This document shows, piece by piece, positions 8,161 to 26,962 of a stretch of DNA of 51,537 bases. Origin of the DNA: a virus; the IMG/VR virus record IMGVR_UViG_3300045988_148326, positions 1-51,537 of that record; one strand, written 5' to 3'. The position numbers and the translations under genes were made by a program. The first letter of the stretch is position 1, and the number at the start of each line of letters is the position of its first letter. Under the pieces are notes generated by a model that ran no database searches, was not told the DNA's origin, and worked only from the letters and a program-made list of their open reading frames with translations.

Positions 8161-9596
8161 AAGAAACAGATTTACATAAATACCAATTAGCTTGCGTGCA
8201 GCATATAATCGAGCATCCATTTTGCGGTGTATTTGTAGATATGGGCCTTGGCAAAACCATATCAACTCTTACTGCTATAAATTATTTGATGTTTGATTAT
8301 TGTGAAGTTAATTCTGTATTAGTTATAGCTCCAAAACGAGTGGCTGAGTCAGTTTGGCAAGAAGAAGCAGAGAAATGGGAACATACAAAGCATTTGCGCT
8401 TTTCTAAGATTATAGGTACTGCTAAACAGCGAATAGCAGCTGTTATGGAAACAAAAGCTGATATTTATATCATATCAAGAGATAATGTTGCATGGCTTTG
8501 TGCTTTATATGGCGGAGGCAAATTACCTTTTGATATGGTAGTAGTCGATGAGCTTAGCAGTTTTAAGTCTTATAAATCAGAGCGTTTTAAGGCATTACGC
8601 GGCGCAAGACCTTATCTTAAAAGGTTAGTAGGACTAACTGGTACACCCGCTCCAAATGGACTTATTGATTTGTGGCCTCAAATATATCTTATGGATAGAG
8701 GCGAGCGCCTTGAAAAGACAATATCCAGATATAGAGAAAGGTATTTTCGGCCAGGTCAAACGAATGGTCATGTCGTATATTCATACGATTTGATGAGTGA
8801 CTCAGAATATTTAATACATAAGAAAATAGAGGATATTTGCATAAGCATGAAAGCCGATGATTATCTTGAAATGCCGTTTAGGACAGATAACTATATAAAG
8901 CTTAGAATGCCTGAAGCTCTAAAGAAGCAATATGATGACTTTGAAAAGAATAAAGTACTTGACTTAATAAGCGCTACTGAAACGGTTGAGCAAGAAGACG
9001 AAAATGGCAATTCAGTATTTGTTGAAAAGCCTGTGGAAGTAAACGTAGTCAATGCCGCTGCCCTTTCAAATAAATTACTTCAATTTGCTAATGGAGCTAT
9101 ATATGATGAAGAAAGAAATGTGTTTCCAATTCATTATATTAAGCTTGAAGCTCTTAAGGAGATAATTGAAGATGCAAATGGCCAATCTGTGCTTGTAGCA
9201 TGGACCTATCAATTCGATAGGGATAGAATCGTGGAATATCTTAAAAAATATAAGCCAAGAGAGCTTAAAAACAATAAAGATATTGAAGACTGGAATGCTG
9301 GTAAAATACAAGTTATGTTGGCACATCCAGCATCAGCAGGTCATGGGCTTAATCTTCAAGCAGGAGGTAGCATAATAGTTTGGTTTGGGCAAACATGGAG
9401 TCTTGAATTATATCAGCAGTTTAATGCTCGATTATATCGCCAGGGACAGCAAAATCATGTTGTTATAAACCATTTAATTTTGCAGGGCACTCATGATGAA
9501 GATGTAATCAGAGCACTTAAAGCAAAAGATAAAAAGCAAAATGCCTTAATGGATAGTATAAAAGCAAAAATCGACAAATATAAAAAATATATGTAA
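8157..9596 (+). CDS. SNF2/DEAD-like superfamily 2 helicase
   Basis: DMGLGKT (motif I), VVVDELSSFKS (motif II), LTGTPAPNG (motif III), HPASAGHGLNLQ and RLYRQGQ (motifs V/VI). Confidence 0.9.
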   Translation: MKETDLHKYQLACVQHIIEHPFCGVFVDMGLGKTISTLTAINYLMFDYCEVNSVLVIAPKRVAESVWQEEAEKWEHTKHLRFSKIIGTAKQRIAAVMETKADIYIISRDNVAWLCALYGGGKLPFDMVVVDELSSFKSYKSERFKALRGARPYLKRLVGLTGTPAPNGLIDLWPQIYLMDRGERLEKTISRYRERYFRPGQTNGHVVYSYDLMSDSEYLIHKKIEDICISMKADDYLEMPFRTDNYIKLRMPEALKKQYDDFEKNKVLDLISATETVEQEDENGNSVFVEKPVEVNVVNAAALSNKLLQFANGAIYDEERNVFPIHYIKLEALKEIIEDANGQSVLVAWTYQFDRDRIVEYLKKYKPRELKNNKDIEDWNAGKIQVMLAHPASAGHGLNLQAGGSIIVWFGQTWSLELYQQFNARLYRQGQQNHVVINHLILQGTHDEDVIRALKAKDKKQNALMDSIKAKIDKYKKYM

Positions 9597-9597
9597 T

Positions 9598-9918
9598 ATG
9601 GGAAGAAATGGTAAAAAAGCTCCAGTATTTCTGGAAATGGTAAAATTTGTTAACGATAATGTTGGCAAAGTAGTAAGTTCAAAAGAAATTTTGCTTGGTA
9701 AAGAGCCAGGTAGAAACTCAGAAACCGCGTATCTTTATAAGCTTGTAAAACTTGGATATATAGAGCCTGTAGACGATAATAGCTTTGTGAAAGATAAAAC
9801 AGCAAGCTTTAAGGTGATAAAAGAATTTCCTAAACATTACAATTCTGTTATGTTTATGGATGAACTGAGAGTGGCAAATGGGTATATACCAGATAATCAT
9901 AAACGTAAAGTATATTGA
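9598..9918 (+). CDS. Hypothetical protein (possible winged-helix)
   Basis: 106-aa ORF abutting the helicase stop. No diagnostic motif. Confidence 0.5.
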   Translation: MGRNGKKAPVFLEMVKFVNDNVGKVVSSKEILLGKEPGRNSETAYLYKLVKLGYIEPVDDNSFVKDKTASFKVIKEFPKHYNSVMFMDELRVANGYIPDNHKRKVY

Positions 9919-9919
9919 T

Positions 9920-10294
9920 ATGAAAGCAATAGAAAGTCAAGTAGGCGGAAGCCATTACAAGGATATGGCTTTTCAGCCAATAGAGCTAATAGCTGCTCTT
10001 AGATGTTCTTTTATCCAAGGCTGTATAATAAAATATATCAGTAGATATAAGAATAAAAATGGCGCTCAGGATATAAAGAAATGCATCCACTATGCGCAAT
10101 TAGCTATTGAGCTGGATGACAAAAGAAGATGTAATGACAAGGCTTTATCTATGAATATAAACAAGTATATTCTTAAGAATAAGCTCACTATACTTCAACG
10201 GAGAATAATAACTCAAGCAGTATATAATAATTATATTCAGGTTATTCAATACTGCAAAGAACTGCTGCAGTTGGAATACCCAGAAAATGTATAA
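9920..10294 (+). CDS. DUF3310-like phage protein (track ORF 9878..10294, trimmed to the ATG at 9920)
   Basis: MKAIESQVGGSHYK...QPIELI...IKYISRYKNKNGAQDIKKCIHY matches the GGSHY / IKYI.R signature of DUF3310. The ATG at 9920 follows the upstream stop at 9916..9918. Confidence 0.7.
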   Translation: MKAIESQVGGSHYKDMAFQPIELIAALRCSFIQGCIIKYISRYKNKNGAQDIKKCIHYAQLAIELDDKRRCNDKALSMNINKYILKNKLTILQRRIITQAVYNNYIQVIQYCKELLQLEYPENV

Positions 10295-10367
10295 TGCGCG
10301 GCCAAGTTAAGAAGTGTTAAATATGTAATTTTTATGAGGAAAAATTTTCTATTCTCGGAGAAAATTA

Positions 10368-10401
10368 GTATATTTGCATATCTAAATAAAGATAATAAAA
10401 T
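10368..10401 (+). promoter_or_regulatory. Second copy of the early promoter/leader box (-7 element TATATTTG at 10369..10376)
   Basis: GTATATTTGCATATCTAAATAAAGATAATAAAAT, 31/34 identical to 27..60. It ends in the ATG at 10400. Confidence 0.55.
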
Positions 10402-10642
10402 GGACAAGAAAAGAACCTTTCAGCAAATAGCCAAAGATATAAAGTCAACATGGCTTAATGTATATTTTGGCGCAGTGCCTTATTTAGAAGCAATGCTAAC
10501 ACTTGATACTTCAGATTCGAATGCTATGTATTTTTATGATACTGCAGGAGATATTGTTAGATACTTCTTAGCTAATGCTCAAACATTTAGAGGAGCGGAT
10601 GCAAGAAGATTAAAAGAAGAACTTAAAAATTTAGTAGTGTAA
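10400..10642 (+). CDS. Hypothetical protein (track ORF 10334..10642, trimmed to the ATG at 10400 because the promoter box lies inside the longer ORF)
   Basis: MDKKRTFQQIAKDIKSTWLNVYFGAVPYLEAML...; the start sits at the end of the duplicated leader. Confidence 0.55.
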   Translation: MDKKRTFQQIAKDIKSTWLNVYFGAVPYLEAMLTLDTSDSNAMYFYDTAGDIVRYFLANAQTFRGADARRLKEELKNLVV

Positions 10643-10890
10643 TGAAGAAAATAATTATCGGACTATGTGTTATCATAGTAATACAAGCTTTATGTATTGT
10701 CTATATGAATAGTGCTATAGGCCAAAATACTAAGCATATAGAAGCTTTAGAACAATATACAAAAGCTCAAATATATAAGAAAGATGCACAGCTTTATCTT
10801 ATGAATTCTCAATGGAACAACCCAGAAGTTCATAAGCTATTGGCCGACTCTTGTAAAATGGATTGTATTAACTATAAAAACGGTAAATAA
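10642..10890 (+). CDS. Small membrane-anchored protein
   Basis: N-terminal hydrophobic segment MKKIIIGLCVIIVIQALCIVYM. TAATG overlap with the upstream stop. Confidence 0.55.
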   Translation: MKKIIIGLCVIIVIQALCIVYMNSAIGQNTKHIEALEQYTKAQIYKKDAQLYLMNSQWNNPEVHKLLADSCKMDCINYKNGK

Positions 10891-10892
10891 TC

Positions 10893-11186
10893 ATGGCTAA
10901 CATCTTAGAACAAGCAAATAAAATCGTAAATGAGCGCTCAGAAGAAAAAGAGCGTCAATACGGACCGTTTCAAGCATCAATGGAAAGAGCTGCTGCTCTT
11001 TATAATCTGATGTCACCCAAAGACCAACAAATAACAACTGCTGGTATGTATAGAGCTATGATAGCTCTTAAGTTATCGCGTGAGGCTTATGCACACAAAG
11101 AGGATAATCTTCTTGATGCAGTAGCTTACATGGGCTCTATGAATGACTATCTGGAAGAGCATAAAGATATTTTTAATGACAAATAA
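10893..11186 (+). CDS. Small all-alpha phage protein of the kind often labelled DUF6378; function unknown
   Basis: ANKIVNERSEEKERQYGPFQASMERAAALYN...MIALKLSREAYAHKEDNLLDAVAY resembles that family from memory only. Confidence 0.4.
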   Translation: MANILEQANKIVNERSEEKERQYGPFQASMERAAALYNLMSPKDQQITTAGMYRAMIALKLSREAYAHKEDNLLDAVAYMGSMNDYLEEHKDIFNDK

Positions 11187-11188
11187 TT

Positions 11189-11389
11189 ATGAAGCAGTTT
11201 ATTAAAAATTTTTTAATAGGTTTATGCCTTGCACCTATAGCAATAGTGATAGCATGTGTAATGATTTCGCCTATATTTATTATGATGTATGTGCATAGCG
11301 AATGTATACAAGGGCTACTACTGTTAGTATATATGGCTTTATTATTTGCCGCCATTGTATCGACTATTAACAAACTATCAAAAAAATAA
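11189..11389 (+). CDS. Small two-TM membrane protein
   Basis: FLIGLCLAPIAIVIACVMISPIFIMMY and LLLLVYMALLFAAIVSTI hydrophobic segments. Confidence 0.5.
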   Translation: MKQFIKNFLIGLCLAPIAIVIACVMISPIFIMMYVHSECIQGLLLLVYMALLFAAIVSTINKLSKK

Positions 11390-11421
11390 TAAAGAACTTA
11401 GAGATAAAATTAAAAATAATT

Positions 11422-12243
11422 ATGGCAAAAGTTTATAACACAACAGACCTCAGACCAGACCAGGCATTTGAGCGTCATGTATTCCACAGAGACCAGTTTG
11501 CGCATTATCTGCGATGGACTCATATCTTGAAAGAAGCCAAAATTGGTGAGTCTATTGTTGATTTTGGCTGTGGAGCTGCTAACTTGCTTGAGGTATTATA
11601 CAGAAACAAGTTTAAGCAAAAAGAATATATCGGTATCGATATTCGCGAAAAAACAATTCAAGAAGCAGCTGAGAAGTATGCCAATGTACCTTGGGCTCAT
11701 TTCTATGTTGCTGACCTTGTTAAAAACTACATGGATTTCAGCAAGTTTAATGCTGACAAAGTCTGCGCTTTTGAAGTGCTTGAGCACGTTGGCAAACAGA
11801 ATGCAGATGCATTTTTGGAGAACTTTAAGGCTTGTGGCAATAATAACGCTACTTATTACCTTTCAACTCCAAACTATGACCCATCTGTAGGAGCAGCTGG
11901 TAATCATACTTATGACTCAGGTGATGGTCGCGGAGTTGATGTGCAAGAGTTTGACCATTGGGAACTCGAAGGCATATTGTTGAAGCATTTCAACATAGTA
12001 AAGAAGTTCGGTACATTTGCTTCAGCTAAAGACTATAAGCCACTGATGAACGATTGGCAACAGAAAATGTTTGATGCTCTTAAAGAGTATTATGACTCAA
12101 ACCTCATTGCCAATATCATGGCTCCTATGTTCCCAGATGCTTCACGTAATACTCTTTGGGTATTAAAGCGTAAGCCGGGAGATGTAAAAGTTGCTCCTAA
12201 AGCCACTGAGCAACCAAGTTTATTCGATGACGATTTAATGTAA
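11422..12243 (+). CDS. Class I SAM-dependent methyltransferase (small-molecule/UbiG-like appearance; substrate unknown)
   Basis: Motif I IVDFGCGAANLL, acidic motif II YIGIDI and AFEVLEHV. No (D/N/S)PP(Y/F) or PC-type DNA methyltransferase motif seen. Confidence 0.75.
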   Translation: MAKVYNTTDLRPDQAFERHVFHRDQFAHYLRWTHILKEAKIGESIVDFGCGAANLLEVLYRNKFKQKEYIGIDIREKTIQEAAEKYANVPWAHFYVADLVKNYMDFSKFNADKVCAFEVLEHVGKQNADAFLENFKACGNNNATYYLSTPNYDPSVGAAGNHTYDSGDGRGVDVQEFDHWELEGILLKHFNIVKKFGTFASAKDYKPLMNDWQQKMFDALKEYYDSNLIANIMAPMFPDASRNTLWVLKRKPGDVKVAPKATEQPSLFDDDLM

Positions 12244-12280
12244 CAGATATGTTGAACTTAATTGCTAATTTGGCATCATT

Positions 12281-12655
12281 ATGAAAAGTTTAATTTCAGT
12301 AACTCCAAGAGAGTTTAAACGTAACTTCAATGAAGTAATGGAAATGTGCACAGATATGTGCATGACAACCAATCAGGAGATTATTATCACTGTTCCTACG
12401 AGCAGAAAGTCAAATACTCATGCAGAAATAGCCAAGCTTATTCCTGTAGAAGGAGGTATTAAGTATGAGTACAATAAAGAACTTATGGATAAGCATGGCA
12501 TTAACGCTTCTAATCCTAAGCTTTCAAAAATTGGAGCTATCATGGCTGATGCTTTTGAAAAAGAAGGAGTTTACAGCCTTATAAGTCCAGAAGTTGAACA
12601 TAGACTTGCTAGAGCTGTAGAAACAGCAGCTAAGGAACTTGTTAAAATGATGTAG
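12281..12655 (+). CDS. Hypothetical protein
   Basis: 124-aa ORF with no recognisable motif. Confidence 0.5.
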   Translation: MKSLISVTPREFKRNFNEVMEMCTDMCMTTNQEIIITVPTSRKSNTHAEIAKLIPVEGGIKYEYNKELMDKHGINASNPKLSKIGAIMADAFEKEGVYSLISPEVEHRLARAVETAAKELVKMM

Positions 12656-12657
12656 TC

Positions 12658-13152
12658 ATGAAATTTGCAAAAATAAGAAATGTAAAGTCCCCTGTTCGTG
12701 GGACTGGTAAAGCAGCAGGAATTGATTTTTTCGTTCCTAACTTTGGCAGTAACAAAGGCTTTATTGTAAATCCAGGAACTGATGTTTTGATACCATCAGG
12801 TATTAAGATGGAAATTCCAGAAGGATATATGCTTATGGCAGCTGATAAATCAGGAGTTGTAACTTCTAAATGGGCTTGCCTTGGAGCTGGTAGAACACCA
12901 AAAGCAGAAGCATTTGAAAGCATCGTTATCCTCGGAGCTAAGATTGTAGATGAAGATTACCAAGGTGAAATTCATATACATGTTGTTAATGTCGGCAAAG
13001 CCAAGGTCCACATTAAGCCAGGTATGAAAATAGCACAATTTATTCTTGTGCCTGTATCGTATGAAGGTCTTGAAGAAGTTTCTGAGTCAGAGCTTTTCAG
13101 CCGTTCATCTGAGCGTGGTGATGGAGCACTCGGGTCTACTGGGTCATACTAA
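12658..13152 (+). CDS. Trimeric dUTPase-fold dNTP pyrophosphatase (dUTPase; dCTPase activity cannot be excluded)
   Basis: All five dUTPase motifs are present: AAGIDFF, ADKSGV (K in place of the usual R), IVDEDYQGEI, GMKIAQFIL and RGDGALGSTG. Confidence 0.85.
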   Translation: MKFAKIRNVKSPVRGTGKAAGIDFFVPNFGSNKGFIVNPGTDVLIPSGIKMEIPEGYMLMAADKSGVVTSKWACLGAGRTPKAEAFESIVILGAKIVDEDYQGEIHIHVVNVGKAKVHIKPGMKIAQFILVPVSYEGLEEVSESELFSRSSERGDGALGSTGSY

Positions 13153-13173
13153 AAATAATTAAATTTTAAAATT

Positions 13174-13629
13174 ATGGCTAAATTTATTGGAGTTAAAATG
13201 ATTGAAGCTACTCCTATGAGAGCTTCTATGGCTTTAAGTGCAGGTTATAAAATTGGTAATGCTCATCCAGATGATATGGGTTATGAAGTAACTTATCCTG
13301 ATGGATATAAATCTTGGAGTCCTGCTAAAGAGTTTGAGAAAGCTTATTATAAACTTGAAGACCCTACTGGAGATACTCTTAAAGTAAATGATATTAAGAG
13401 ATTTATTAGTAATATTGAAAATGTAAAAGTTGGTACTAAAACAACTAATACTACTCTTACTTGTCTTACTGGATTTGAGGTTCATGGTCAAGCAGCTTGT
13501 GTAAAACCTGAAAACTTTGATTTAAATGTTGGTTCTAATTATGCTCGAATTAAAGCTGAAGATAAAATTTGGGAAGGTCTTGGATTTGTTCTTCAGTGGG
13601 CAAAATATGGACTAACATTCAATGAATAA
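13174..13629 (+). CDS. Conserved-looking hypothetical phage protein
   Basis: N-terminus FIGVKMIEATPM...GYEVTYPDGYKSWSPAKEFEKAYY resembles a widespread small phage domain of unknown function. Confidence 0.55.
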   Translation: MAKFIGVKMIEATPMRASMALSAGYKIGNAHPDDMGYEVTYPDGYKSWSPAKEFEKAYYKLEDPTGDTLKVNDIKRFISNIENVKVGTKTTNTTLTCLTGFEVHGQAACVKPENFDLNVGSNYARIKAEDKIWEGLGFVLQWAKYGLTFNE

Positions 13630-13642
13630 TCAATTTATTCAC

Positions 13643-13729
13643 TATTCTCGCGCGCGATATTGCACTTTAAGTATGAAGCAAAAGATTTATATTCAGAAAA
13701 ACAGGTGGGCTCTAAGACGCGCGAGAATA
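13643..13729. promoter_or_regulatory. 12-bp perfect inverted repeat TATTCTCGCGCG / CGCGCGAGAATA with a 63-nt spacer, in the intergenic gap
   Basis: 13643..13654 and 13718..13729 are exact reverse complements. Both arms contain the ATTCTCGC/GCGAGAAT motif. Confidence 0.6.
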
Positions 13730-13743
13730 TAACTTTAAAGATT

Positions 13744-14187
13744 ATGGCAGAAATTCCTCAAATAATTAATACAAGCCAGTTTCTTAGGTTCGCAGCTGTA
13801 TATGCTAACAAGTTCAAAGCGAATAAAGGATATGGCAGATGGCTTGCAGAGTACGAGCACATGGATAAAGCCGGTATGTTTAAACCAGAAAATATAAGAG
13901 AACAGTATATAAAAATACTCAATGGCACGAGCCGGTTATCTTATATATACTGGGATGCGGTACACTATATTTGTATACAAGCTCTTGATGCCGCTAAGGC
14001 TTTTGCTTCTGCAAACTCATTTGATGTTAGAGTTATAACTGGCGAAATTGCAGTAAATGATAACGACGAAGAACTTACATGCTTATCTATGGAAGAAGCA
14101 ATAAGTATTTGCAATGCCATGAATGAGGAAGCTGAAGAATTGTTGTTTAGAGTTTATAACAGTAACACTAATAAAATAGTTAAATGA
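13744..14187 (+). CDS. Hypothetical protein (track ORF starts at TTG 13660; first in-frame ATG at 13744 preferred)
   Basis: The TTG-started extension would run through the inverted-repeat element. MAEIPQIINTSQFLRF... starts right after it. Confidence 0.5.
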   Translation: MAEIPQIINTSQFLRFAAVYANKFKANKGYGRWLAEYEHMDKAGMFKPENIREQYIKILNGTSRLSYIYWDAVHYICIQALDAAKAFASANSFDVRVITGEIAVNDNDEELTCLSMEEAISICNAMNEEAEELLFRVYNSNTNKIVK

Positions 14188-14188
14188 T

Positions 14189-14365
14189 ATGGCAAAGTAT
14201 ATAGAAGATAAAGTTCACATTGAAAGTCCGATGGATTTAGAAGCTGAATTATGTAAATATAATTGCAAAACTGAAAAAGAACTTGATGAGCTTCTTTGGT
14301 ATGATTATGGAGTTGCACTTATATTAGATTATAAATATAAAGATAAAGAAGAGAATAACGTATGA
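14189..14365 (+). CDS. Small hypothetical protein (58 aa, below the ORF-track cutoff)
   Basis: Hand translation MAKYIEDKVHIESPMDLEAELCKYNCKTEKELDELLWYDYGVALILDYKYKDKEENNV. Its stop overlaps the next start (ATGA at 14362..14365). Confidence 0.45.
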   Translation: MAKYIEDKVHIESPMDLEAELCKYNCKTEKELDELLWYDYGVALILDYKYKDKEENNV

Positions 14366-15042
14366 ACATAGCTTATAAAAATGCTACTGAGGCTTTTGAA
14401 GACCTATATGCTTTTATTATGGGCCAAGGAGTAAATACTAATGTTGGAACAAAAGCTGTTTACAATGTTGGTTTTTATTTACTTAATCCTCAGCAACGTG
14501 TCATAACAACAGAATGGCGTAAATTTAGCGAACGATATGCAGAGCGCGAATATGCCTGGTATATGTCTGGAGATAGGAGTGTAGCTGAAATTAAAAAGCA
14601 TGCTCCTATGTGGGATAAAATGCATGGTGGAGATAACATTGTCAATTCTAATTATGGATGGCAGTGGACTCGCAATCACCAATTGGCAAAGTGCATTAAA
14701 CAGCTTAAAGAGAATAAAGATACTCGTCAAGCTTGGTTTACTATATTTGATGGTAAAGAAAAAGATGACTATGAATATGATACACCTTGTACACTGTCAG
14801 TCGGATTTGATATTAAGCCTCAAATAGGAACTCTTGATATGTGTGTAACTATGCGAAGCAACGATTTGGTTTATGGTTTTTGCAATGACCAATATTGCTG
14901 GACAAAACTTCAACAATTAGTCGCAGATGAGCTCGGTGTGCCAATAGGCACTTATTACCATTTTGCTCATGATTTGCATATATATAAGAGACATTTCGAT
15001 ATGCAAGAAAAGTATTATAAACAACAACTTAAAAACTTATAA
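14362..15042 (+). CDS. Thymidylate-synthase-fold deoxypyrimidine 5-hydroxymethyltransferase, T4 gp42 (dCMP hydroxymethylase)-like
   Basis: - REYAWYMS matches T4 RELEWYKS.
- VNSNYGW matches INSNYGW.
- DTPCTLS contains the catalytic Cys.
- MRSNDLVYGFCNDQYCW matches MRSNDVVFGFRNDYAWQ, including the specificity Asp.
- LHIYKRHF matches LHVYSRHF.
- The comparison is from memory of the T4 sequence. Confidence 0.8.
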   Translation: MNIAYKNATEAFEDLYAFIMGQGVNTNVGTKAVYNVGFYLLNPQQRVITTEWRKFSERYAEREYAWYMSGDRSVAEIKKHAPMWDKMHGGDNIVNSNYGWQWTRNHQLAKCIKQLKENKDTRQAWFTIFDGKEKDDYEYDTPCTLSVGFDIKPQIGTLDMCVTMRSNDLVYGFCNDQYCWTKLQQLVADELGVPIGTYYHFAHDLHIYKRHFDMQEKYYKQQLKNL

Positions 15043-15615: not shown

Positions 15616-15796
15616 TAAAATCGCCAAAATCACTTGGCAAATACTGGGAGTAATTTACTTTCCAGCTTATGTAGCATTTTGGTTGCTGCATAAAATAGCA
15701 AGACTCACACTTGCAATCGCATACTTTGGATTGCTTAACAAGCAAGCTGGAAAAGATATAATCAAGTCATTATTTAAGTGGCATGGAAGATATTAA
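15587..15796 (+). CDS. Small membrane protein (alternative start at 15599)
   Basis: Hydrophobic WQILGVIYFPAYVAFWLL and LTLAIAYFGLL segments. Confidence 0.45.
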   Translation: MNYIMKKVFNKIAKITWQILGVIYFPAYVAFWLLHKIARLTLAIAYFGLLNKQAGKDIIKSLFKWHGRY

Positions 15797-16637
15797 GCAA
15801 TATGGAGACTTAACAGAAAAAGAGCTACTCGAATTCATTGCAGAGATTAAAGGTGATGATGAGGATATTGAAGAAGCTCAAGAAGAGGCAAGCGAAAAGA
15901 TTGCCTTAGAAGAAGAGCATACGCAATTATCTGAGTTGCCAGAAAATGCTGAAATCGAAGAATATTATGGAAATGATGCTTGGCGTAAGTTAACAAAAGA
16001 CACTACTTTTCTACATGGTGACGAAGGACAGCGCAAAGCAAGTTTGGCATTAGCAAAAGCTAATAGACAAAAAGCTCAGAGACTTAAGCAAGATAGAATA
16101 CGTATTCAAAGACAGGCATTCAACCAAGAATATATAAGGTTGAGTGACCCTATTGGAAACGAGAATATTAAGCTATTAGTCTCTTTGCTTGTCGAGGAGC
16201 ATACAAGAATGATTGATAAGTATTCTGCTCTTATAAACAAGAGATTAGCCATGCTGCTCAATCCATTCATACCAAGAAGGTTAAGATTATGCAAAATGCT
16301 ATATCCGGACTCAATCCGTATATGTCCTGGCTTTTTATATAGAGCTAGTAAAGAATATGGCAATAATCTTACTTTTTGGGCTATGCCTAACATTCCATAT
16401 TATTTTGCTCAAAATACAGAGCAGAAAATTCTTATGGAACGCAAGCCGGAATTTTTGGTTTCTATTGACAAGTTTATAACCTTTTACCATGAGCATAAAG
16501 ACAAAAGAACTAAAAAGGAACTTAAATATGCTTCACTTATAATACAAAAAGGTGTATATACTTATTTCGATTTGCTGAGATTAAATCCATTCTGGTTTGA
16601 AATATTGTATAACAGTATAATAGAAAAGCTGAAATGA
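15783..16637 (+). CDS. Hypothetical protein with acidic N-terminus, translationally coupled to the response-regulator gene
   Basis: 284 aa. ATGA overlap at 16634..16637 with the downstream gene. Confidence 0.55.
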   Translation: MEDIKQYGDLTEKELLEFIAEIKGDDEDIEEAQEEASEKIALEEEHTQLSELPENAEIEEYYGNDAWRKLTKDTTFLHGDEGQRKASLALAKANRQKAQRLKQDRIRIQRQAFNQEYIRLSDPIGNENIKLLVSLLVEEHTRMIDKYSALINKRLAMLLNPFIPRRLRLCKMLYPDSIRICPGFLYRASKEYGNNLTFWAMPNIPYYFAQNTEQKILMERKPEFLVSIDKFITFYHEHKDKRTKKELKYASLIIQKGVYTYFDLLRLNPFWFEILYNSIIEKLK

Positions 16638-17332
16638 ATAAGCAAATAGGTTTACCAAGAATTTTGGTCTATCAGGACGAAGATTGTAGCGTAATGACAG
16701 ACTATTTACAGTTTTACGGCTTTGAAGTAATTACGTCTACTGAAGCAGATATACTTCACAAAATAAAAGAAGAGAATTATGATTTGTGTATACTCGGACA
16801 CTATAAAACTAGCTTACCTGGTGATTTGAGGTTATTAAAAACTTTGCGTAAAACAGACCGTAGAACACCTGTTATAATGGTATCAGACCAATCTAGATAC
16901 GAGTTTATAATAGATGCTTTTGACGCAGAAGCAGATGATTATATAATCAGGCCATATAACCTCGAAGAGCTAATAAGACGAATAAAGGCAATATTAAGAA
17001 GATGTGGTGTTAAAGTGCGAGCCATTGAGCTATCTTACAAAATTGGTAATTATACATTTGACACAGAGAAAAATACTCTATCAATAAATGGAGTAGAAAC
17101 AAAGCTTACAAATAAAGAAAGCAAAACTCTATCTTTATTGTGTGCCTATAAAAATGAGATACTACCAAAAAAGATACTTATGCAACAAGTATGGACTGAT
17201 GATAATTATTTCAATAAGCGTAGTTTAGACGTCCACATGTGCCTTTTACGTAATTGTCTTAAAATGGATAAACGAATTGTTATTGAAACAAAAAGAGGTA
17301 TCGGTTATTCTCTTGTTGTTAACGAGGAATAA
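16634..17332 (+). CDS. OmpR/PhoB-family response regulator homologue with a degenerate (pseudo-)receiver domain
   Basis: - Receiver: RILVYQDED...YDLCILGHY...VIMVSDQS...ADDYIIRPY.
- Winged helix: LTNKESKTLSLL...QQVW...RSLDVHMCLLRNCL...ETKRGIGYSL.
- The phospho-acceptor Asp position is Gly55 and the conserved Lys is Arg. Confidence 0.85.
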   Translation: MNKQIGLPRILVYQDEDCSVMTDYLQFYGFEVITSTEADILHKIKEENYDLCILGHYKTSLPGDLRLLKTLRKTDRRTPVIMVSDQSRYEFIIDAFDAEADDYIIRPYNLEELIRRIKAILRRCGVKVRAIELSYKIGNYTFDTEKNTLSINGVETKLTNKESKTLSLLCAYKNEILPKKILMQQVWTDDNYFNKRSLDVHMCLLRNCLKMDKRIVIETKRGIGYSLVVNEE

Positions 17333-24804: not shown

Positions 24805-25374
24805 ATGATAATAGAAGAAAACAAAAAGCGCTTAGAGGCAAAAGAACAAGCCTTATCACATGAGCATTTATTATCAATTCTTGACTATAATCCAAAAACT
24901 GGTATATTCAGATGGAAATACGCTCAACCACTACGTAAAAAATCTCCTAACGCTGGAGATATAGCAGGCACTACAATAGACCATAAGGGCTATCTAAATA
25001 TAGTAATAGGTAAATATACATACAAAGCTCATAGATTAGCCTGGTTTTATTATTACAAAGAGTGGCCATGTCATGATAGCGACATAGACCACATAGATGG
25101 CAATCCAAAAAATAACAGTATAAATAATCTAAGGCTAGTAACTGGAATGCAAAATAGCCGCAATCGCAAAAAGCATGTTAATAATTCGTCAGGCACAACA
25201 GGAGTATATTGGCATAAACACAATAAAAAATGGGTTGCTGCTATAGGTAATGGTCTGCGCCGTAATGGGAGAGCACTCTATGACTGTCTTGGTTATTTTG
25301 ACAATTATGAAGATGCTGTAGCAGCAAGAAAAGAAGCAGAGATTAGATATGAATATACACAACCTAAAAAATAA
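24805..25374 (+). CDS. HNH homing endonuclease with AP2 DNA-binding domain
   Basis: YKAHRLAWFYY...DIDHIDGNPKNNSINNLRLVTGMQN (HNH_3) followed by SGTTGVYWHKHNKKWVAAIG...LGYFDNYEDAVAARKEAE (AP2). Confidence 0.88.
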   Translation: MIIEENKKRLEAKEQALSHEHLLSILDYNPKTGIFRWKYAQPLRKKSPNAGDIAGTTIDHKGYLNIVIGKYTYKAHRLAWFYYYKEWPCHDSDIDHIDGNPKNNSINNLRLVTGMQNSRNRKKHVNNSSGTTGVYWHKHNKKWVAAIGNGLRRNGRALYDCLGYFDNYEDAVAARKEAEIRYEYTQPKK

Positions 25375-25381
25375 TAATAGT

Positions 25382-26962
25382 ATGGCTCAACGGATAAAAT
25401 CTATAAAGGAAATGCAATCTACTGCTCTTGATATATCAAATCCGAGTTTAATACAGAATCCAAAAGAGTTATTGCAAATAGAAGTGCTTTCATCATTTGA
25501 AAAATTTACAAAAGTATTTTTTAAGGCTCAATATGGCTCTTCATATATAACTGCAGACCATCATTTAAAAATTATAAAGGCATTGCAAGATGTAGTTGAT
25601 GGCAAGATAACAAGGCTTATAATAAACATTGCTCCTAGATATGGTAAAACACAGCTGGTTGTAAAGTCATTTATATCTTGGTGCTTTGCCTTAAATCCTA
25701 AATGTAGGTTTCTTCATTTGTCATATTCAGACATGCTGGTATATGACAATTCTGAAAATATACGCGATATTATGACTCTTGATTTATACAAAGACTTATT
25801 TCCGCGTTCTGCTTTAGCGTCTGAAAAAGGTTCAGCAAAAAGATGGAAAACAAAAGCCGGTGGAGAATTATATGCTGTATCAACACAAGGTCAGGTAACA
25901 GGATTTGGTAGTGGGCGAATGGACTCAGAGCTTGAACAAATGGACGGCGGTAATGACATTTTTTCATTTGATGACCATACAAATGAGGTATTACAGATGA
26001 TAGGAGCTACTACAAATATATTTCAAGGCGCAATTATGATTGACGACCCTATAAAACCAGAAGATGCAGCTTCAGACCTTGTACGCGAACGCATCAACCA
26101 ACGGTTTGAGAATACTATACGTAATCGTGTCAATTCACGTAAAACACCAATCATCATCATAATGCAGAGGCTTCATGAGCATGACCTTTGTGGCTATTTA
26201 CAAGAAGTAGAGCCAGAAACATGGACAGTCTTATCACTCCCTGTAATTCAAGTAAATCCTGAAACTGGTGAAGAATATGCGCTTTGGTCTATGAAGCATA
26301 GTCTTCAAGAGCTTTATAAGTTACGTGAGATTAACCCAGTGGTGTTTGAGACACAGTATATGCAAAATCCTATGCCAACTGAAGGTCTTATGTATCATGA
26401 GTTTAAGACGTATTCAGTTCAGGAATTGCCATCAGGCAATGCAGCACAGCAAAGATGGTGCTATGTTGACACCGCTGATACTGGCTCAGACTATCTGTGC
26501 GCAATATGCTTCATAAACACCCCAGAAACAGTCTACGTGACTGATATTCTATATACACAAGACCCAATGGAGAAAACAGAAGTGTTATTAGCCAAAATGC
26601 TGACAGAAAATTGCACAAATGAATGCTTAATTGAGTCGAATAACGGAGGTAGGCAGTTTGCTAGAAATGTAAAGACAAAAGTAAGAGTGAATATGCGGAA
26701 CTTCAAAACAGTAATTCATACATTTACTCAAACTAAGAATAAAGCAGCTCGTATCTATTCGAATTCAGCTCTTGTAAATTCTGACGTGGCATTTCCTGAG
26801 TCTTGGGATAAGAAATGGCGTGATTTTTACAACGCTATTACTACATATAGAAAAGATAACAAGCGAAAATCTGTGCACGATGATGCCCCAGATGCGCTCA
26901 CAGGCGTAATCGAAATGCACTCAAGAAAAGCTATAAAAAGAGGAATACGCGCGCGCAATTAA
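25382..26962 (+). CDS. terL: Terminase large subunit (track ORF 25349..26962, trimmed to the ATG after the HNH stop)
   Basis: Walker A-like NIAPRYGKTQL, Walker B IMIDDP, nuclease acidic residues CYVDTADTGSDY and ESNNGG. 526 aa from this start. Confidence 0.88.
   Translation: MAQRIKSIKEMQSTALDISNPSLIQNPKELLQIEVLSSFEKFTKVFFKAQYGSSYITADHHLKIIKALQDVVDGKITRLIINIAPRYGKTQLVVKSFISWCFALNPKCRFLHLSYSDMLVYDNSENIRDIMTLDLYKDLFPRSALASEKGSAKRWKTKAGGELYAVSTQGQVTGFGSGRMDSELEQMDGGNDIFSFDDHTNEVLQMIGATTNIFQGAIMIDDPIKPEDAASDLVRERINQRFENTIRNRVNSRKTPIIIIMQRLHEHDLCGYLQEVEPETWTVLSLPVIQVNPETGEEYALWSMKHSLQELYKLREINPVVFETQYMQNPMPTEGLMYHEFKTYSVQELPSGNAAQQRWCYVDTADTGSDYLCAICFINTPETVYVTDILYTQDPMEKTEVLLAKMLTENCTNECLIESNNGGRQFARNVKTKVRVNMRNFKTVIHTFTQTKNKAARIYSNSALVNSDVAFPESWDKKWRDFYNAITTYRKDNKRKSVHDDAPDALTGVIEMHSRKAIKRGIRARN

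Follow-up and report, generated by a model that had tools for sequence, protein, structure and literature searches.

A candidate cytosine-hypermodification module combining a T4-type hydroxymethylase with a Hen1-like methyltransferase in a Bacteroides-type gut siphophage

The T-even hydroxymethylcytosine (hmC) pathway comprises the dCMP hydroxymethylase gp42, the dCTPase/dUTPase gp56, the dNMP kinase gp1, the dCMP deaminase cd and the alpha/beta-glucosyltransferases. The Bacteroides fragilis phages BF486P2 and BF503P1 carry the MetaGPA 5hmC carbamoyltransferase system, a type of enzyme for which carbamoylation of the 5hmC hydroxyl has been demonstrated (PMC8670742). The 5-hydroxy-dCMP synthases RB69 gp48 and DLP3 gp80 are likewise ThyA-fold enzymes of dCMP, with Asp at N177 and an acidic residue at L143, and are marked by D169N and flavin (PMC13326640). 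Stenotrophomonas phage AXL3 encodes, in gp27-gp31, a distant homologue (26% identity) of the methyltransferase described below, next to an NTP pyrophosphohydrolase, a kinase, a ThyA with the hydroxymethylase signature and a dCMP deaminase. Unlike the locus described here, that cluster is MazG-type and has a Xanthomonadales host, and its authors read it as a thymidylate pathway (PMC7504290). AXL3 DNA resisted 35 of 37 enzymes, including all those tested with G/C in their sites, and was cut only by recognizers of AATT and TTAA (PMC7504290).

The DNA analysed here (the window) consists of 51,537 nt, positions 1 to 51,537 of IMGVR_UViG_3300045988_148326, read on one strand 5' to 3'; the source is a Bacteroides-type phage that is very common in the human gut. 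With moderate confidence, the segment from ~10.9 to 15.0 kb is interpreted as a cytosine-hypermodification module built on T-even logic, to which a new tailoring step is added, the most likely product being 5-methoxymethylcytosine. The three ORFs on which the original prediction was built, 11422-12243, 12658-13152 and 14362-15042, are all present on the + strand. The phage DNA probably carries a so far undescribed methylated hydroxymethyl-cytosine, because a T4-like hydroxymethylase is encoded together with a methyltransferase that co-occurs with the hydroxymethylase in hundreds of unrelated phages.

The module shares with the T-even phages a dCMP hydroxymethylase of the ThyA fold that has the same signature in its active site, a dNTP pyrophosphatase alongside it and a dedicated enzyme for decorating the product; the commoner 'flavour A' relatives also share a kinase and a dCMP deaminase within the operon, both of which are missing from the window. 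In contrast to the T-even system, the ThyA homologue is only ~27% identical to gp42, the pyrophosphatase is of the dUTPase fold rather than MazG and the decorator is a SAM methyltransferase instead of a glycosyltransferase. The window comes from a siphophage of Bacteroidota that has a genome of 51 kb and encodes a family-A polymerase. Its closest cultured lineage is that of BF486P2, with the same gene order and identities of 60% for ThyA (there annotated deoxycytidylate 5-hydroxymethyltransferase), 56% for dUTPase and 75% for the SNF2 helicase. Both place a candidate enzyme for tailoring the hmC hydroxyl upstream of the dUTPase-ThyA pair. In BF486P2 the tailoring slot is filled by a carbamoyltransferase of TobZ type together with a P-loop protein and a second paralogue of ThyA, and in the window by DUF6378 plus the methyltransferase. 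The products are accordingly predicted to differ, carbamoyloxymethyl in the former and a methylated derivative in the latter. The suggestion that hmC-type DNA would be unusual in a gut Bacteroidota siphovirus needs qualification, as there is precedent in cultured relatives with an annotated dCMP hydroxymethylase, one of them with the published 5hmC carbamoyltransferase type.

The ThyA-fold protein (14362..15042, +, 226 aa) matched Pfam Thymidylat_synt (PF00303) at 1.1e-24. Its best PDB relatives were T4 dCMP hydroxymethylase (1b49, 9.8e-17) and the CMP hydroxymethylase MilA (1.6e-16), with the top thymidylate synthase among solved structures below both (1.7e-11), and all NCBIfam thymidylate-synthase models fell far under their cut-offs. 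The motif pairs with T4 that had been noted earlier were all reproduced by HMMER and MAFFT alignment: REYAWYMS/RELEWYKS, VNSNYGW/INSNYGW, PCT/MCT, LHIYKRHF/LHVYSRHF and, for the block containing the specificity Asp, MRSNDLVYGFCND/MRSNDVVFGFRND (window/T4 in each case). The signature residues are E58, W80, Y94, R126, R166, S167, D169, D177, H207 and Y209. At the position of E. coli N177 the alignment gave Asp, not Asn; Asn177 and Leu143 of thymidylate synthase are both replaced by Asp, the sequence 'DTPC' places an Asp three residues ahead of the catalytic Cys (Cys-3), Asp169 is retained and the C-terminal folate tail is lacking. The diagnostic meaning of N177, Cys-3 and Asp169 follows PMC13326640. 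All available sequence tests thus agreed with the proposal of a T4-type hydroxymethylase acting on cytosine, and they support assignment of the product as a putative dCMP hydroxymethylase. A 5-hydroxy-dCMP synthase was ruled out by Asp169, which is kept (no D169N) in the window protein and in all its relatives.

Automated JGI and PHROGs annotation names this ORF 'thymidylate synthase', and phage dUTPases are common; both would suit ordinary nucleotide salvage, in which a phage with canonical virion DNA would encode a thymidylate synthase and a housekeeping dUTPase, the methyltransferase being unrelated to them. The Asp residues at N177 and L143, the missing folate-tail region and the HMM scores, in which T4 and MilA hydroxymethylases rank above all thymidylate synthases, rule out a thymidylate synthase. 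The genome also does not show the avoidance of G/C sites found in control Bacteroides phages (see below), and salvage is considered highly improbable.

The ORF at 12658..13152 (+, 164 aa) encodes a dUTPase-fold dNTP pyrophosphatase of a module-specific 'K-S-G' subfamily (PF00692, 1.7e-16; PHROG 135, 1.9e-29; PDB dUTPases at 2e-14). The five motifs of trimeric dUTPases are present, in line with the complete fold described earlier, and motif 2 reads DKSG in place of RS(G/S). All module-linked lineages have (D/N/E)KS(G/S) at this motif. In other lineages the slot is taken by MazG-type NTP-PPases, the two types being mutually exclusive (MazG in 61 and the dUTPase fold in 17 of 80 loci). The shared slot and the common K-S-G motif bear out the idea of a specialised module member. 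A role as dCTP/dUTP pyrophosphatase, supplying dCMP and depleting the canonical dNTP, is proposed for the K-S-G enzyme, which could alternatively be an ordinary dUTPase.

The proposed tailoring enzyme (11422..12243, +, 273 aa) is a Hen1-like class I SAM-dependent methyltransferase. Matches to Pfam Methyltransf_23/25/12/11 and the lack of a DPPY or PCQ DNA-methyltransferase motif in the ORF confirm its description as a class I enzyme without DNA-methyltransferase motifs. Homologues ~73% identical were found in marine, freshwater and rumen sources and in a 193-kb phage contig, and clustering at 50% identity splits the family into 136 or more groups. The top matches of the family profile were HEN1/Hen1/HENMT1 (9e-12 to 5e-5). 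The family invariants, a DFGCG-type loop, E-V-x-E-H and N-H-x-x-E, correspond to the SAM loop and metal ligands of HEN1 (PMC10781085), the fourth metal ligand being equated by motif similarity rather than by a confident alignment. In common with Hen1/HEN1/HENMT1 the enzyme has the DFGCG-type SAM loop, an E-V-I-E-H metal motif, an S/T-T-P-N strand and a downstream (D/N)-H-x-x-E. Unlike them it has only about 15-20% identity across the catalytic core, its own N-terminal H-R-D..A-H..R-W and C-terminal A-P..P..R-N motifs, no RNA-binding or Pnkp-interaction domains, and deoxynucleotide rather than RNA-repair enzymes as partners. From its sequence, the nearest characterised family is that of the Hen1 O-methyltransferases, and the enzyme is probably metal-dependent.

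In Bacteroidota-type phage contigs from gut, rumen, marine and freshwater sources, members of the methyltransferase family adjoin a ThyA homologue of hydroxymethylase type, and the order DUF6378-methyltransferase-[dUTPase or MazG]-ThyA recurs in 10 Bacteroidota-phage lineages. In marine contigs methyltransferase, dUTPase and ThyA form a tight operon, with genes abutting or overlapping by a single nucleotide. In a distant methyltransferase subfamily, a ThyA homologue was present at 62 of the 64 loci with sufficient flanking sequence, and 71 of 72 neighbouring ThyA genes carried the hydroxymethylase/cytosine signature. Every module contained a dNTP pyrophosphatase, either MazG-type or KSG dUTPase-fold, and all five methyltransferase-matching records in a phage collection showed methyltransferase, NTP-PPase, (kinase), pyrimidine hydroxymethylase and dCMP deaminase. 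No ThyA gene was found within 10 kb of the methyltransferase in one lineage, the 193-kb phage contig, where it is flanked by SAH hydrolase and SAM synthetase genes, implying heavy use of SAM. This neighbourhood, conserved in unrelated phages, and the exchange for a carbamoyltransferase in BF486P2 strongly support membership of the methyltransferase in the hydroxymethylase pathway, as had been guessed originally.

The same data bear on a reading in which the phage has plain 5-hydroxymethylcytosine DNA, in part or in full, and the methyltransferase is a bystander in an early nucleotide cluster, acting as a Hen1-type RNA 3'-end 2'-O-methyltransferase or another non-DNA enzyme. The best characterised relatives are indeed small-RNA 2'-O-methyltransferases, DNA-methyltransferase motifs are lacking and unrelated genes are often packed together in phage early regions. 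The near-obligate pairing with hydroxymethylase-type ThyA, the abutting marine genes, the carbamoyltransferase in the same place in the sister phage, the SAM-cycle genes of the large phage and the absence of a Pnkp/RNA-repair partner and a Hen1 RNA-binding domain all argue against it, and it is judged unlikely.

The acceptor is most likely the hydroxyl of 5-hydroxymethylcytosine, which the enzyme would O-methylate, and 5-methoxymethylcytosine is probably the end product. The neighbourhood ties the methyltransferase to the pathway and is silent on the acceptor atom, so that another atom or intermediate may be modified, such as N4 or N3 of (hydroxymethyl)cytosine or a group added after activation of the hydroxymethyl, giving a different final base. 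Foldseek neighbours of the model, whose substrate loop is at low confidence, were generic small-molecule methyltransferases (TM about 0.55) that include N- and C-methyltransferases; in a related rumen lineage, a gene of the 5-hmdU-DNA-kinase family and one resembling SAM synthetase are inserted between methyltransferase and dUTPase, the former suggesting substitution chemistry at the hydroxymethyl carbon. Against this, enzymes able to install another group (a kinase, a pyrophosphorylase or an amino-acid transferase) are missing from the window, a Hen1-type E-x-x-E-H/His metal site, conserved here, typically goes with methylation of hydroxyls, and the analogous sister-phage enzyme works on the hydroxyl. 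A different acceptor is thus regarded as rather unlikely. Hen1 itself methylates a ribose diol, not a base.

In the favoured O-methylation pathway, the K-S-G enzyme would cleave dCTP and/or dUTP, feeding dCMP onward and lowering the canonical pool. The ThyA-fold enzyme, judging from its signature, would convert dCMP to 5-hydroxymethyl-dCMP with methylene-tetrahydrofolate and water. A search of the whole window found neither a dNMP kinase nor a glycosyltransferase, as first noted, and the dUTPase-fold flavour of the module lacks both dCMP deaminase and dNMP kinase; flux to the triphosphate would therefore rely on host or other enzymes, and host kinases are invoked because a phage kinase was not found. 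The family-A DNA polymerase of the phage would then incorporate the product. The Hen1-like, probably metal-dependent methyltransferase, perhaps aided by the DUF6378 protein, would methylate the modified base on the nucleotide or DNA, most likely at the 5-CH2OH oxygen to give 5-methoxymethylcytosine.

Virion DNA modified in this way would be protected from most restriction enzymes with C in their site, and the capped hydroxyl would plausibly also shield it from hmC-dependent nucleases. GGCC, CGCG, CTGCAG, CAGCTG and ATGCAT were not avoided in either the window or BF486P2, whereas all were strongly avoided in B40-8, a control with canonical ThyA that shares its host species with BF486P2, and in crAss001; the comparison is limited to a small number of genomes, not all from the same host. 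The window avoided the 6-mers TTTAAA, CATATG, GATATC, AATATT and ATTAAT, whose cognate enzymes cut 5hmC or glucosyl-hmC DNA in vitro. GAATTC and GATC were also avoided and do not follow that rule, as EcoRI leaves T4gt DNA uncut and GATC is confounded by Dam in T4. Protection would not be universal, because GATC and some one-C sites are still strongly avoided in the window.

The 97-aa DUF6378 protein (10893..11186, +; PF19905, 2.2e-11) appears to be an accessory companion of the module. Its gene lies immediately upstream of the methyltransferase in seven Bacteroidota-phage lineages (58-65% identity) and is missing from BF486P2, which lacks the methyltransferase. In the distant subfamily it is flanked by the ThyA homologue and the dUTPase-fold gene at 17 of 17 dUTPase-type loci, and only one MazG-type locus has it. 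The AF2 model (pLDDT 88) has four helices; it matched no PDB fold, and no profile similarity to MazG was detected. Further upstream, a 138-aa protein (9878..10294, +) contains DUF3310 only (PF11753, 5.1e-9). A role as the missing nucleotide kinase is not supported, since its PHROG 'nucleotide kinase' matches span only the DUF3310 part; T7 gp1.7 has DUF3310 at its C-terminus and no pairwise similarity to this protein.

The methyltransferase and ThyA genes are separated by four ORFs besides the pyrophosphatase gene, not by the five of unknown function counted originally, and one of the four belongs to a known family. The 124-aa ORF at 12281..12655 (+) had no Pfam, PHROG or NCBIfam match; it is gut-lineage-specific, as 75 of 80 close relatives carry it and it was not recognised in other lineages. 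The 175-aa ORF at 13660..14187 (+), whose true start is probably the ATG at 13744, is conserved next to the ThyA gene, on its upstream side, across the gut, rumen and BF486P2 lineages, with homologues (41-45% identity) at the same position in L151, L155, L165 and BF486P2 and a weak PHROG match as its sole hit. The last 4 nt of a 58-aa ORF (14189..14365, +) overlap the start of the ThyA gene; 46 of the 80 sister contigs have this ORF. The gene at 13174..13629 (+) belongs to the N4 gp49/Sf6 gp66 family (PF13876, 1.1e-14) and is probably a mobile cassette outside the pathway; it was detected in just 13 of the 80 sister contigs, with a median identity of ~55%, and is 91-96% nucleotide-identical to crAssphage genomes.

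The 51.5-kb window is an essentially complete siphophage genome. Its products include a primase-helicase, an SNF2 helicase, a DNA polymerase of family A, an SSB resembling gp2.5 and a PD-(D/E)XK exonuclease, together with the large terminase, portal and capsid proteins and a tape measure of 1307 aa. The cultured phages most closely related to it are BF486P2, BF494P1 and BF503P1-P4 of Bacteroides fragilis. Contigs of ~51 kb that are near-identical to the window are extremely frequent in human-gut assemblies, and the clusters to which the methyltransferase (MTase) and thymidylate synthase (ThyA) homologue belong hold thousands of member sequences. The ORFs named in the original prediction of a base-hypermodification module were all found when the ORF calls were checked, interleaved with four other ORFs rather than the five claimed.

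The ThyA homologue (14362-15042, plus strand, 226 aa) has the Thymidylat_synt fold (PF00303, 1.1e-24), and among solved structures it is most similar to T4 dCMP hydroxymethylase and the CMP hydroxymethylase MilA, with every thymidylate synthase ranking lower. All of the motif pairs with T4 gp42 given in the original prediction were seen again in the alignments. The catalytic and nucleotide-binding residues C143, R165, S166, H206, Y208, Y98 and the E62-equivalent correspond in the alignments to E. coli C146, R166, S167, H207, Y209, Y94 and E58 respectively, and W80 and R126 (E. coli numbering) are also retained. Asp is found at the position of E. coli Asn177 (GFCND, vs GFRND in T4 and GLPFN in E. 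coli), a change by which dCMP is chosen instead of dUMP (PMC13326640). A further Asp occupies the -3 position relative to the catalytic Cys ('DTPC', vs 'DFMC' in T4 and 'DVAC' in MilA) and is invariant across all lineages; because the clade has a deletion of four residues just before the Cys, this Asp is equated with E. coli L143 by register and not from a solved structure. Change of L143 to D or E is associated with hydroxymethyl products in place of methyl ones, as an acidic residue at this position lets water in (PMC13326640). The diagnostic signature was identical in every related lineage compared.

Two other assignments were rejected. In a canonical ThyA, residues 177 and 143 would be Asn and Leu, and both are Asp here; the folate-closing tail of the ~264-aa ThyA is missing, the protein stopping ~18 residues past the HIY motif, and NCBIfam models of canonical thymidylate synthase scored no more than 77 bits against cut-offs above 100. 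Change of D169 to N is the mark of the new flavin-dependent 5-hydroxy-dCMP synthases (PMC13326640, 2026), and Asp169 is kept in the window (MRSND; RB69 gp48 has MRSQN). Asp177, the Asp at Cys-3 and the retained Asp169 and active-site residues argue that the ORF is, on every sequence criterion, very probably a dCMP hydroxymethylase of the T4 type. This hydroxymethylase part adds a member to a familiar kind and is annotated already in cultured relatives.

The dUTPase-fold enzyme (12658-13152, plus strand, 164 aa; PF00692) is complete, as claimed, with all five motifs present (AAGIDF, DKSG, VDEDYQGE, KIAQFIL and RGDGALGSTG); an additional 20 aa lie between motifs 2 and 3. The replacement of Arg by Lys in motif 2 is clade-wide, while the replacement of the Phe lid by Leu in motif 5 is limited to the lineage of the window. 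Every dUTPase-fold gene linked to the module, which combines the MTase, a dNTP pyrophosphatase and the hydroxymethylase-type ThyA, with a DUF6378 gene in the arrangement of the window, carries NKSG or DKSG in motif 2; therefore, the oddity picked out by the original prediction is the hallmark of a module-specific subfamily. Genes for dUTPase-fold and MazG-type NTP-PPases interchange in one slot of the module, from which we infer a shared role, and both would hydrolyse canonical pyrimidine dNTPs. T4 gp56, the dCTPase/dUTPase of the hydroxymethylcytosine (hmC) pathway, is itself MazG-like (Table 1 of PMC13326640). The DUF6378 protein (10893-11186, plus strand, 97 aa) was modelled by AF2 as four helices (pLDDT 88). 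Its assignment as a MazG-like dCTPase was rejected: Foldseek of the model gave no PDB match with E <1, a PDB profile search was empty and hhalign against the MazG family of the module gave a probability of 0.1.

The MTase (11422-12243, plus strand, 273 aa) proved to be a class I SAM MTase lacking DNA-MTase motifs, again as originally described. Assignment as a DNA methyltransferase (N6A/N4C or C5), for which a target-recognition domain and either motif IV (D/N/S)PP(Y/F/W) or the catalytic Cys of PCQ would be expected, was rejected, as strand 4 reads FEVLEH and no N6_N4_Mtase or DNA_methylase Pfam match was obtained. The best PDB matches of a diverse profile of the family were Arabidopsis HEN1 (9e-12, aligned over HEN1 residues 711-838), bacterial Hen1 (7.5e-11 and 1e-8) and human HENMT1 (5e-5). 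VDFGCG and FEVLEH were invariant in 14 diverse members, and the motifs invariant in the phage family are D-x-G-C-G, E-V-x-E-H and a downstream N-H-x-x-E; H-R-D..A-H..R-W and A-P..P..R-N are specific to the family. HEN1 has a DFGCG SAM loop and the Mg2+/Mn2+ ligands E796, E799, H800 and H860, and its metal binds the hydroxyls destined for methylation (PMC10781085). The VDFGCG and FEVLEH of the phage family match this loop and the E-x-x-E-H ligands. The N-H-x-x-E motif is located downstream of S-T-P-N and was not confidently aligned by HMMER to D-H-x-F-E-W of HEN1 (His860), the spacing being different. This conservation favours metal-assisted O-methylation by the phage enzyme.

Membership of the Hen1 family itself was rejected. 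The MTase is single-domain with deoxynucleotide-enzyme neighbours and there is no Pnkp within the window; as it has neither RNA-binding domains nor a Pnkp partner, it is described as Hen1-like in mechanism. Assignment of the substrate from structure was also rejected, since the Foldseek PDB neighbours of the AF2 model (pLDDT 78) were generic class I small-molecule MTases and the substrate loop was a low-confidence prediction. A search of BFVD with the model returned only an uncharacterised family member.

The distribution of the MTase was assessed across phage and metagenome sequences. Homologues with ~73% identity were found far beyond gut phages, and in marine 42-kb contigs the MTase, dUTPase and ThyA genes are contiguous, neighbours abutting or sharing one nucleotide. 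Ten lineages of Bacteroidota phages have the common order DUF6378, MTase, dUTPase or MazG, and ThyA, with ThyA only 50-65% identical to that of the window. In the phage collection the MTase was matched by only five records at 26-32% identity, representing four distinct phages: a freshwater podovirus, a freshwater siphovirus, Pseudoxanthomonas phage PW916 and Stenotrophomonas phage AXL3 (two records). All five carry the gene set MTase, NTP pyrophosphatase, (kinase), pyrimidine hydroxymethylase and dCMP deaminase. An exhaustive profile search (E <=1e-30) gave 136 clusters of the family at 50% identity.

The scan of MTase loci in metagenomes was overrun by near-identical human-gut contigs, and diversity was obtained using a profile headed by a distant member, which gave a sample of 80 loci of a distant MTase subfamily. 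The count of ThyA homologues was limited to the 64 loci having 3.5 kb or more of downstream sequence, and 62 of these contained one; 71/72 such ThyA genes had the D/C/D/D signature. Two mutually exclusive arrangements were found among the 80 loci. The first, with MTase, MazG, kinase, hydroxymethylase and dCMP deaminase, was complete in 44 loci, with partial sets in addition; the second, found in 16-17 loci and also in the window, has the hydroxymethylase, DUF6378 and dUTPase-fold genes with the MTase a few kb off and no kinase, deaminase or MazG. On a 192.8-kb large phage-like contig (ENA ERZ28594376 scaffold_17, 8557-12021), an MTase 73% identical to that of the window is situated between genes for S-adenosylhomocysteine hydrolase (AdoHcyase) and S-adenosylmethionine synthetase (MetK). 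The arrangement has the look of a SAM cycle, encoded by the phage and built around the MTase, and suggests that SAM is consumed stoichiometrically.

The genes at the tailoring position differ between related phages. The cultured sister phage BF486P2 resembles the window in gene order and in sequence (ThyA 60%, dUTPase 56% and SNF2 helicase 75% identical) but is without the MTase and DUF6378. In their place, upstream of dut (OP172667, 2653-5929), are genes for an unannotated 611-aa TobZ-type carbamoyltransferase (PF16861, 1.3e-34), a P-loop protein of the AAA_28 type and a divergent ThyA paralogue, the second ThyA of this phage, in which Asp177 is present and E58 and W80 are missing. The carbamoyltransferase gene was absent from the window and 80 sister contigs. 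Carbamoyltransferase of this type, encoded beside ThyA homologues in sewage viromes, has been demonstrated to convert 5hmC to 5-carbamoyloxymethylcytosine, with activity on DNA and on 5hmdCTP (PMC8670742). From this cassette, the DNA of BF486P2, a cultured Bacteroides phage, is predicted to contain 5-carbamoyloxymethylcytosine.

A rumen lineage from IMG/VR (contigs L151, 10846-13378, and L155) has an MTase 81-85% and a ThyA 66% identical to those of the window, and has three genes inserted between MTase and dUTPase, encoding a protein of the 5-hmdU-DNA-kinase family (PF18723, 8.7e-52), a 161-aa unknown protein and a 272-aa SAM-synthetase N-terminal-domain protein. Because the adjoining ThyA has the cytosine signature, the first of these genes may encode a DNA kinase with 5hmC as its substrate. 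Among the genomes compared, a 5-hydroxymethylpyrimidine DNA kinase gene (the 5-HMUDK route) was present only in this lineage and not in the window, and neither a glycosyltransferase nor further tailoring genes were found anywhere in the window. A Walker-A scan for P-loop kinases in all six frames of the window gave a single chance-like match, in a late gene. Assignment of the DUF3310 ORF (9878-10294) as a T7 gp1.7-type kinase was not supported, the two having only the DUF3310 domain in common and no pairwise similarity.

Together, the conservation of the module, the tailoring swaps and the SAM-cycle neighbours place the MTase as the tailoring enzyme for hydroxymethyl-cytosine made by the ThyA homologue, and it is likely that it acts in this pathway. 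The observation on which the original prediction was based is real and its interpretation is supported.

Observed and expected counts of restriction sites, the latter from a maximal-order Markov model, were compared in a few genomes (50 kb for crAss001). Sites rich in G and C were not avoided in the window or BF486P2: observed/expected counts were respectively 71/69 and 45/45 for GGCC, 55/38 and 23/30 for CGCG, 19/16 and 20/14 for CTGCAG, 23/22.5 and 25/20 for CAGCTG, and 19/21.5 and 30/29 for ATGCAT. Strong avoidance of these sites was seen in B40-8, which has a canonical ThyA (L143, N177) and the same host species as BF486P2, and in crAss001, which has ThyX instead; the counts were respectively 4/53 and 0/26, 6/67 and 0/0, 0/10 and 0/21, 2/3.5 and 0/13.5, and 0/4.6 and 0/19, in the same order of sites. 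For 6-mer palindromes containing four G/C, z averaged -0.22 in the window, +0.07 in BF486P2, -1.84 in B40-8 and -3.65 in crAss001. Depleted sites in the window were TTTAAA (11/40), CATATG (0/18.6), GATATC (1/18.5), AATATT (31/55), ATTAAT (19/36) and GAATTC (6/16), and GATC was completely absent (0/~103, z = -11.9). GATC is also avoided by BF486P2 (7/115) and crAss001 (1/158) but not by B40-8 (126/146), which encodes its own Dam methylase; CTAG is depleted by no more than half in the window (54/105) and almost missing from the other three Bacteroides phages.

DraI, EcoRV, AseI and NdeI cut 5hmC or glucosyl-hmC DNA completely in vitro, and SspI and AseI cut T4 DNA partially (PMC7653180, Supplementary Table S1). 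For the few genomes compared, the footprint, GAATTC and GATC apart, fits selection only against sites left unprotected by a C5 modification. The DNA of AXL3 resisted 35 of 37 enzymes and was cut only by those recognizing AATT and TTAA (PMC7504290); AXL3 also has ThyX, and its ThyA homologue is therefore redundant for dTMP synthesis. The cytosines of the virion are probably C5-modified.

As the 5-CH2OH group is the only new hydroxyl in the pathway, we tentatively propose, as a possibility short of an even chance, that the virion DNA contains 5-methoxymethylcytosine and that the Hen1-like MTase is a metal-dependent 5-hydroxymethylcytosine O-methyltransferase. The established C5 decorations of phage cytosine are three, namely hmC glycosylation, 5-hydroxycytosine glycosylation and hmC carbamoylation; SAM-dependent capping would add another, cheaper chemistry to these and would probably also be a new entry among natural DNA modifications. 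The searchable literature yielded no description of methoxymethyl-cytosine, this MTase family or the function of DUF6378, and the literature searched no characterization of an hmC O-methyltransferase in phages or of the BF486P2 phages; one paper merely lists O-methyltransferase domains co-occurring with phage TET/JBP-like dioxygenases. The conserved coupling of the Hen1-like MTase with DUF6378 and the K-S-G dUTPase-fold enzyme, of which no description was found in the searchable literature, is a new form of hmC-based hypermodification.

Should the proposal be correct, a hitherto undescribed natural DNA base, 5-methoxymethylcytosine, would occur in one of the most frequently assembled human-gut phage lineages. 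The same MTase family, with at least 136 clusters at 50% identity, would also install it in phages of marine, freshwater, soil and rumen origin, among them the cultured AXL3, for whose unexplained restriction resistance the module is a candidate explanation. Since the carrier lineage is very common, and the MTase and ThyA clusters run to thousands of sequences, such a modification would introduce bias into the sequencing of viromes and into nanopore base-calling, alter the outcomes of restriction, CRISPR and type IV defence in Bacteroides and be relevant to gut-phage engineering. A 5hmC-specific methylating enzyme would serve as a reagent for epigenetic mapping. The large MTase family and its DUF6378 partner are now defined, each with a clear, testable functional context.

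Several other features of the window were recorded. The N4 gp49/Sf6 gp66-family gene at 13174-13629 has 91-96% nucleotide identity to crAssphage (Carjivirus communis gp41 region), while of 80 sister contigs, near-identical in other respects, just 13 gave a detectable homologue, with a median identity of only ~55%, which points to a recent exchange between siphophage and crAss-like phages. A scan for promoters and terminators, which does not cover Bacteroides promoters and gave total counts near shuffle expectation, found within 9.5-17.5 kb one plus-strand terminator-like match only, inside ORF 15783-16637 downstream of the module. The early-gene block ends with a complete OmpR-type response regulator (16634-17332; PHROG 731), made up of a receiver domain and a DNA-binding Trans_reg_C domain; no cognate kinase lies nearby. 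In a tRNA gene at 2915-2996 (Rfam tRNA, 47 bits) the acceptor, D and T arms are normal, but there are ~20 nt around the anticodon loop instead of the expected 9; ARAGORN left the isotype undetermined with a 4-base anticodon 'ccat', and the tRNA may contain an intron or have an expanded loop. The usual HNH-terminase packaging arrangement is also seen: an HNH endonuclease gene (24805-25374) directly precedes the gene for the large terminase (25349-26962) and overlaps it.
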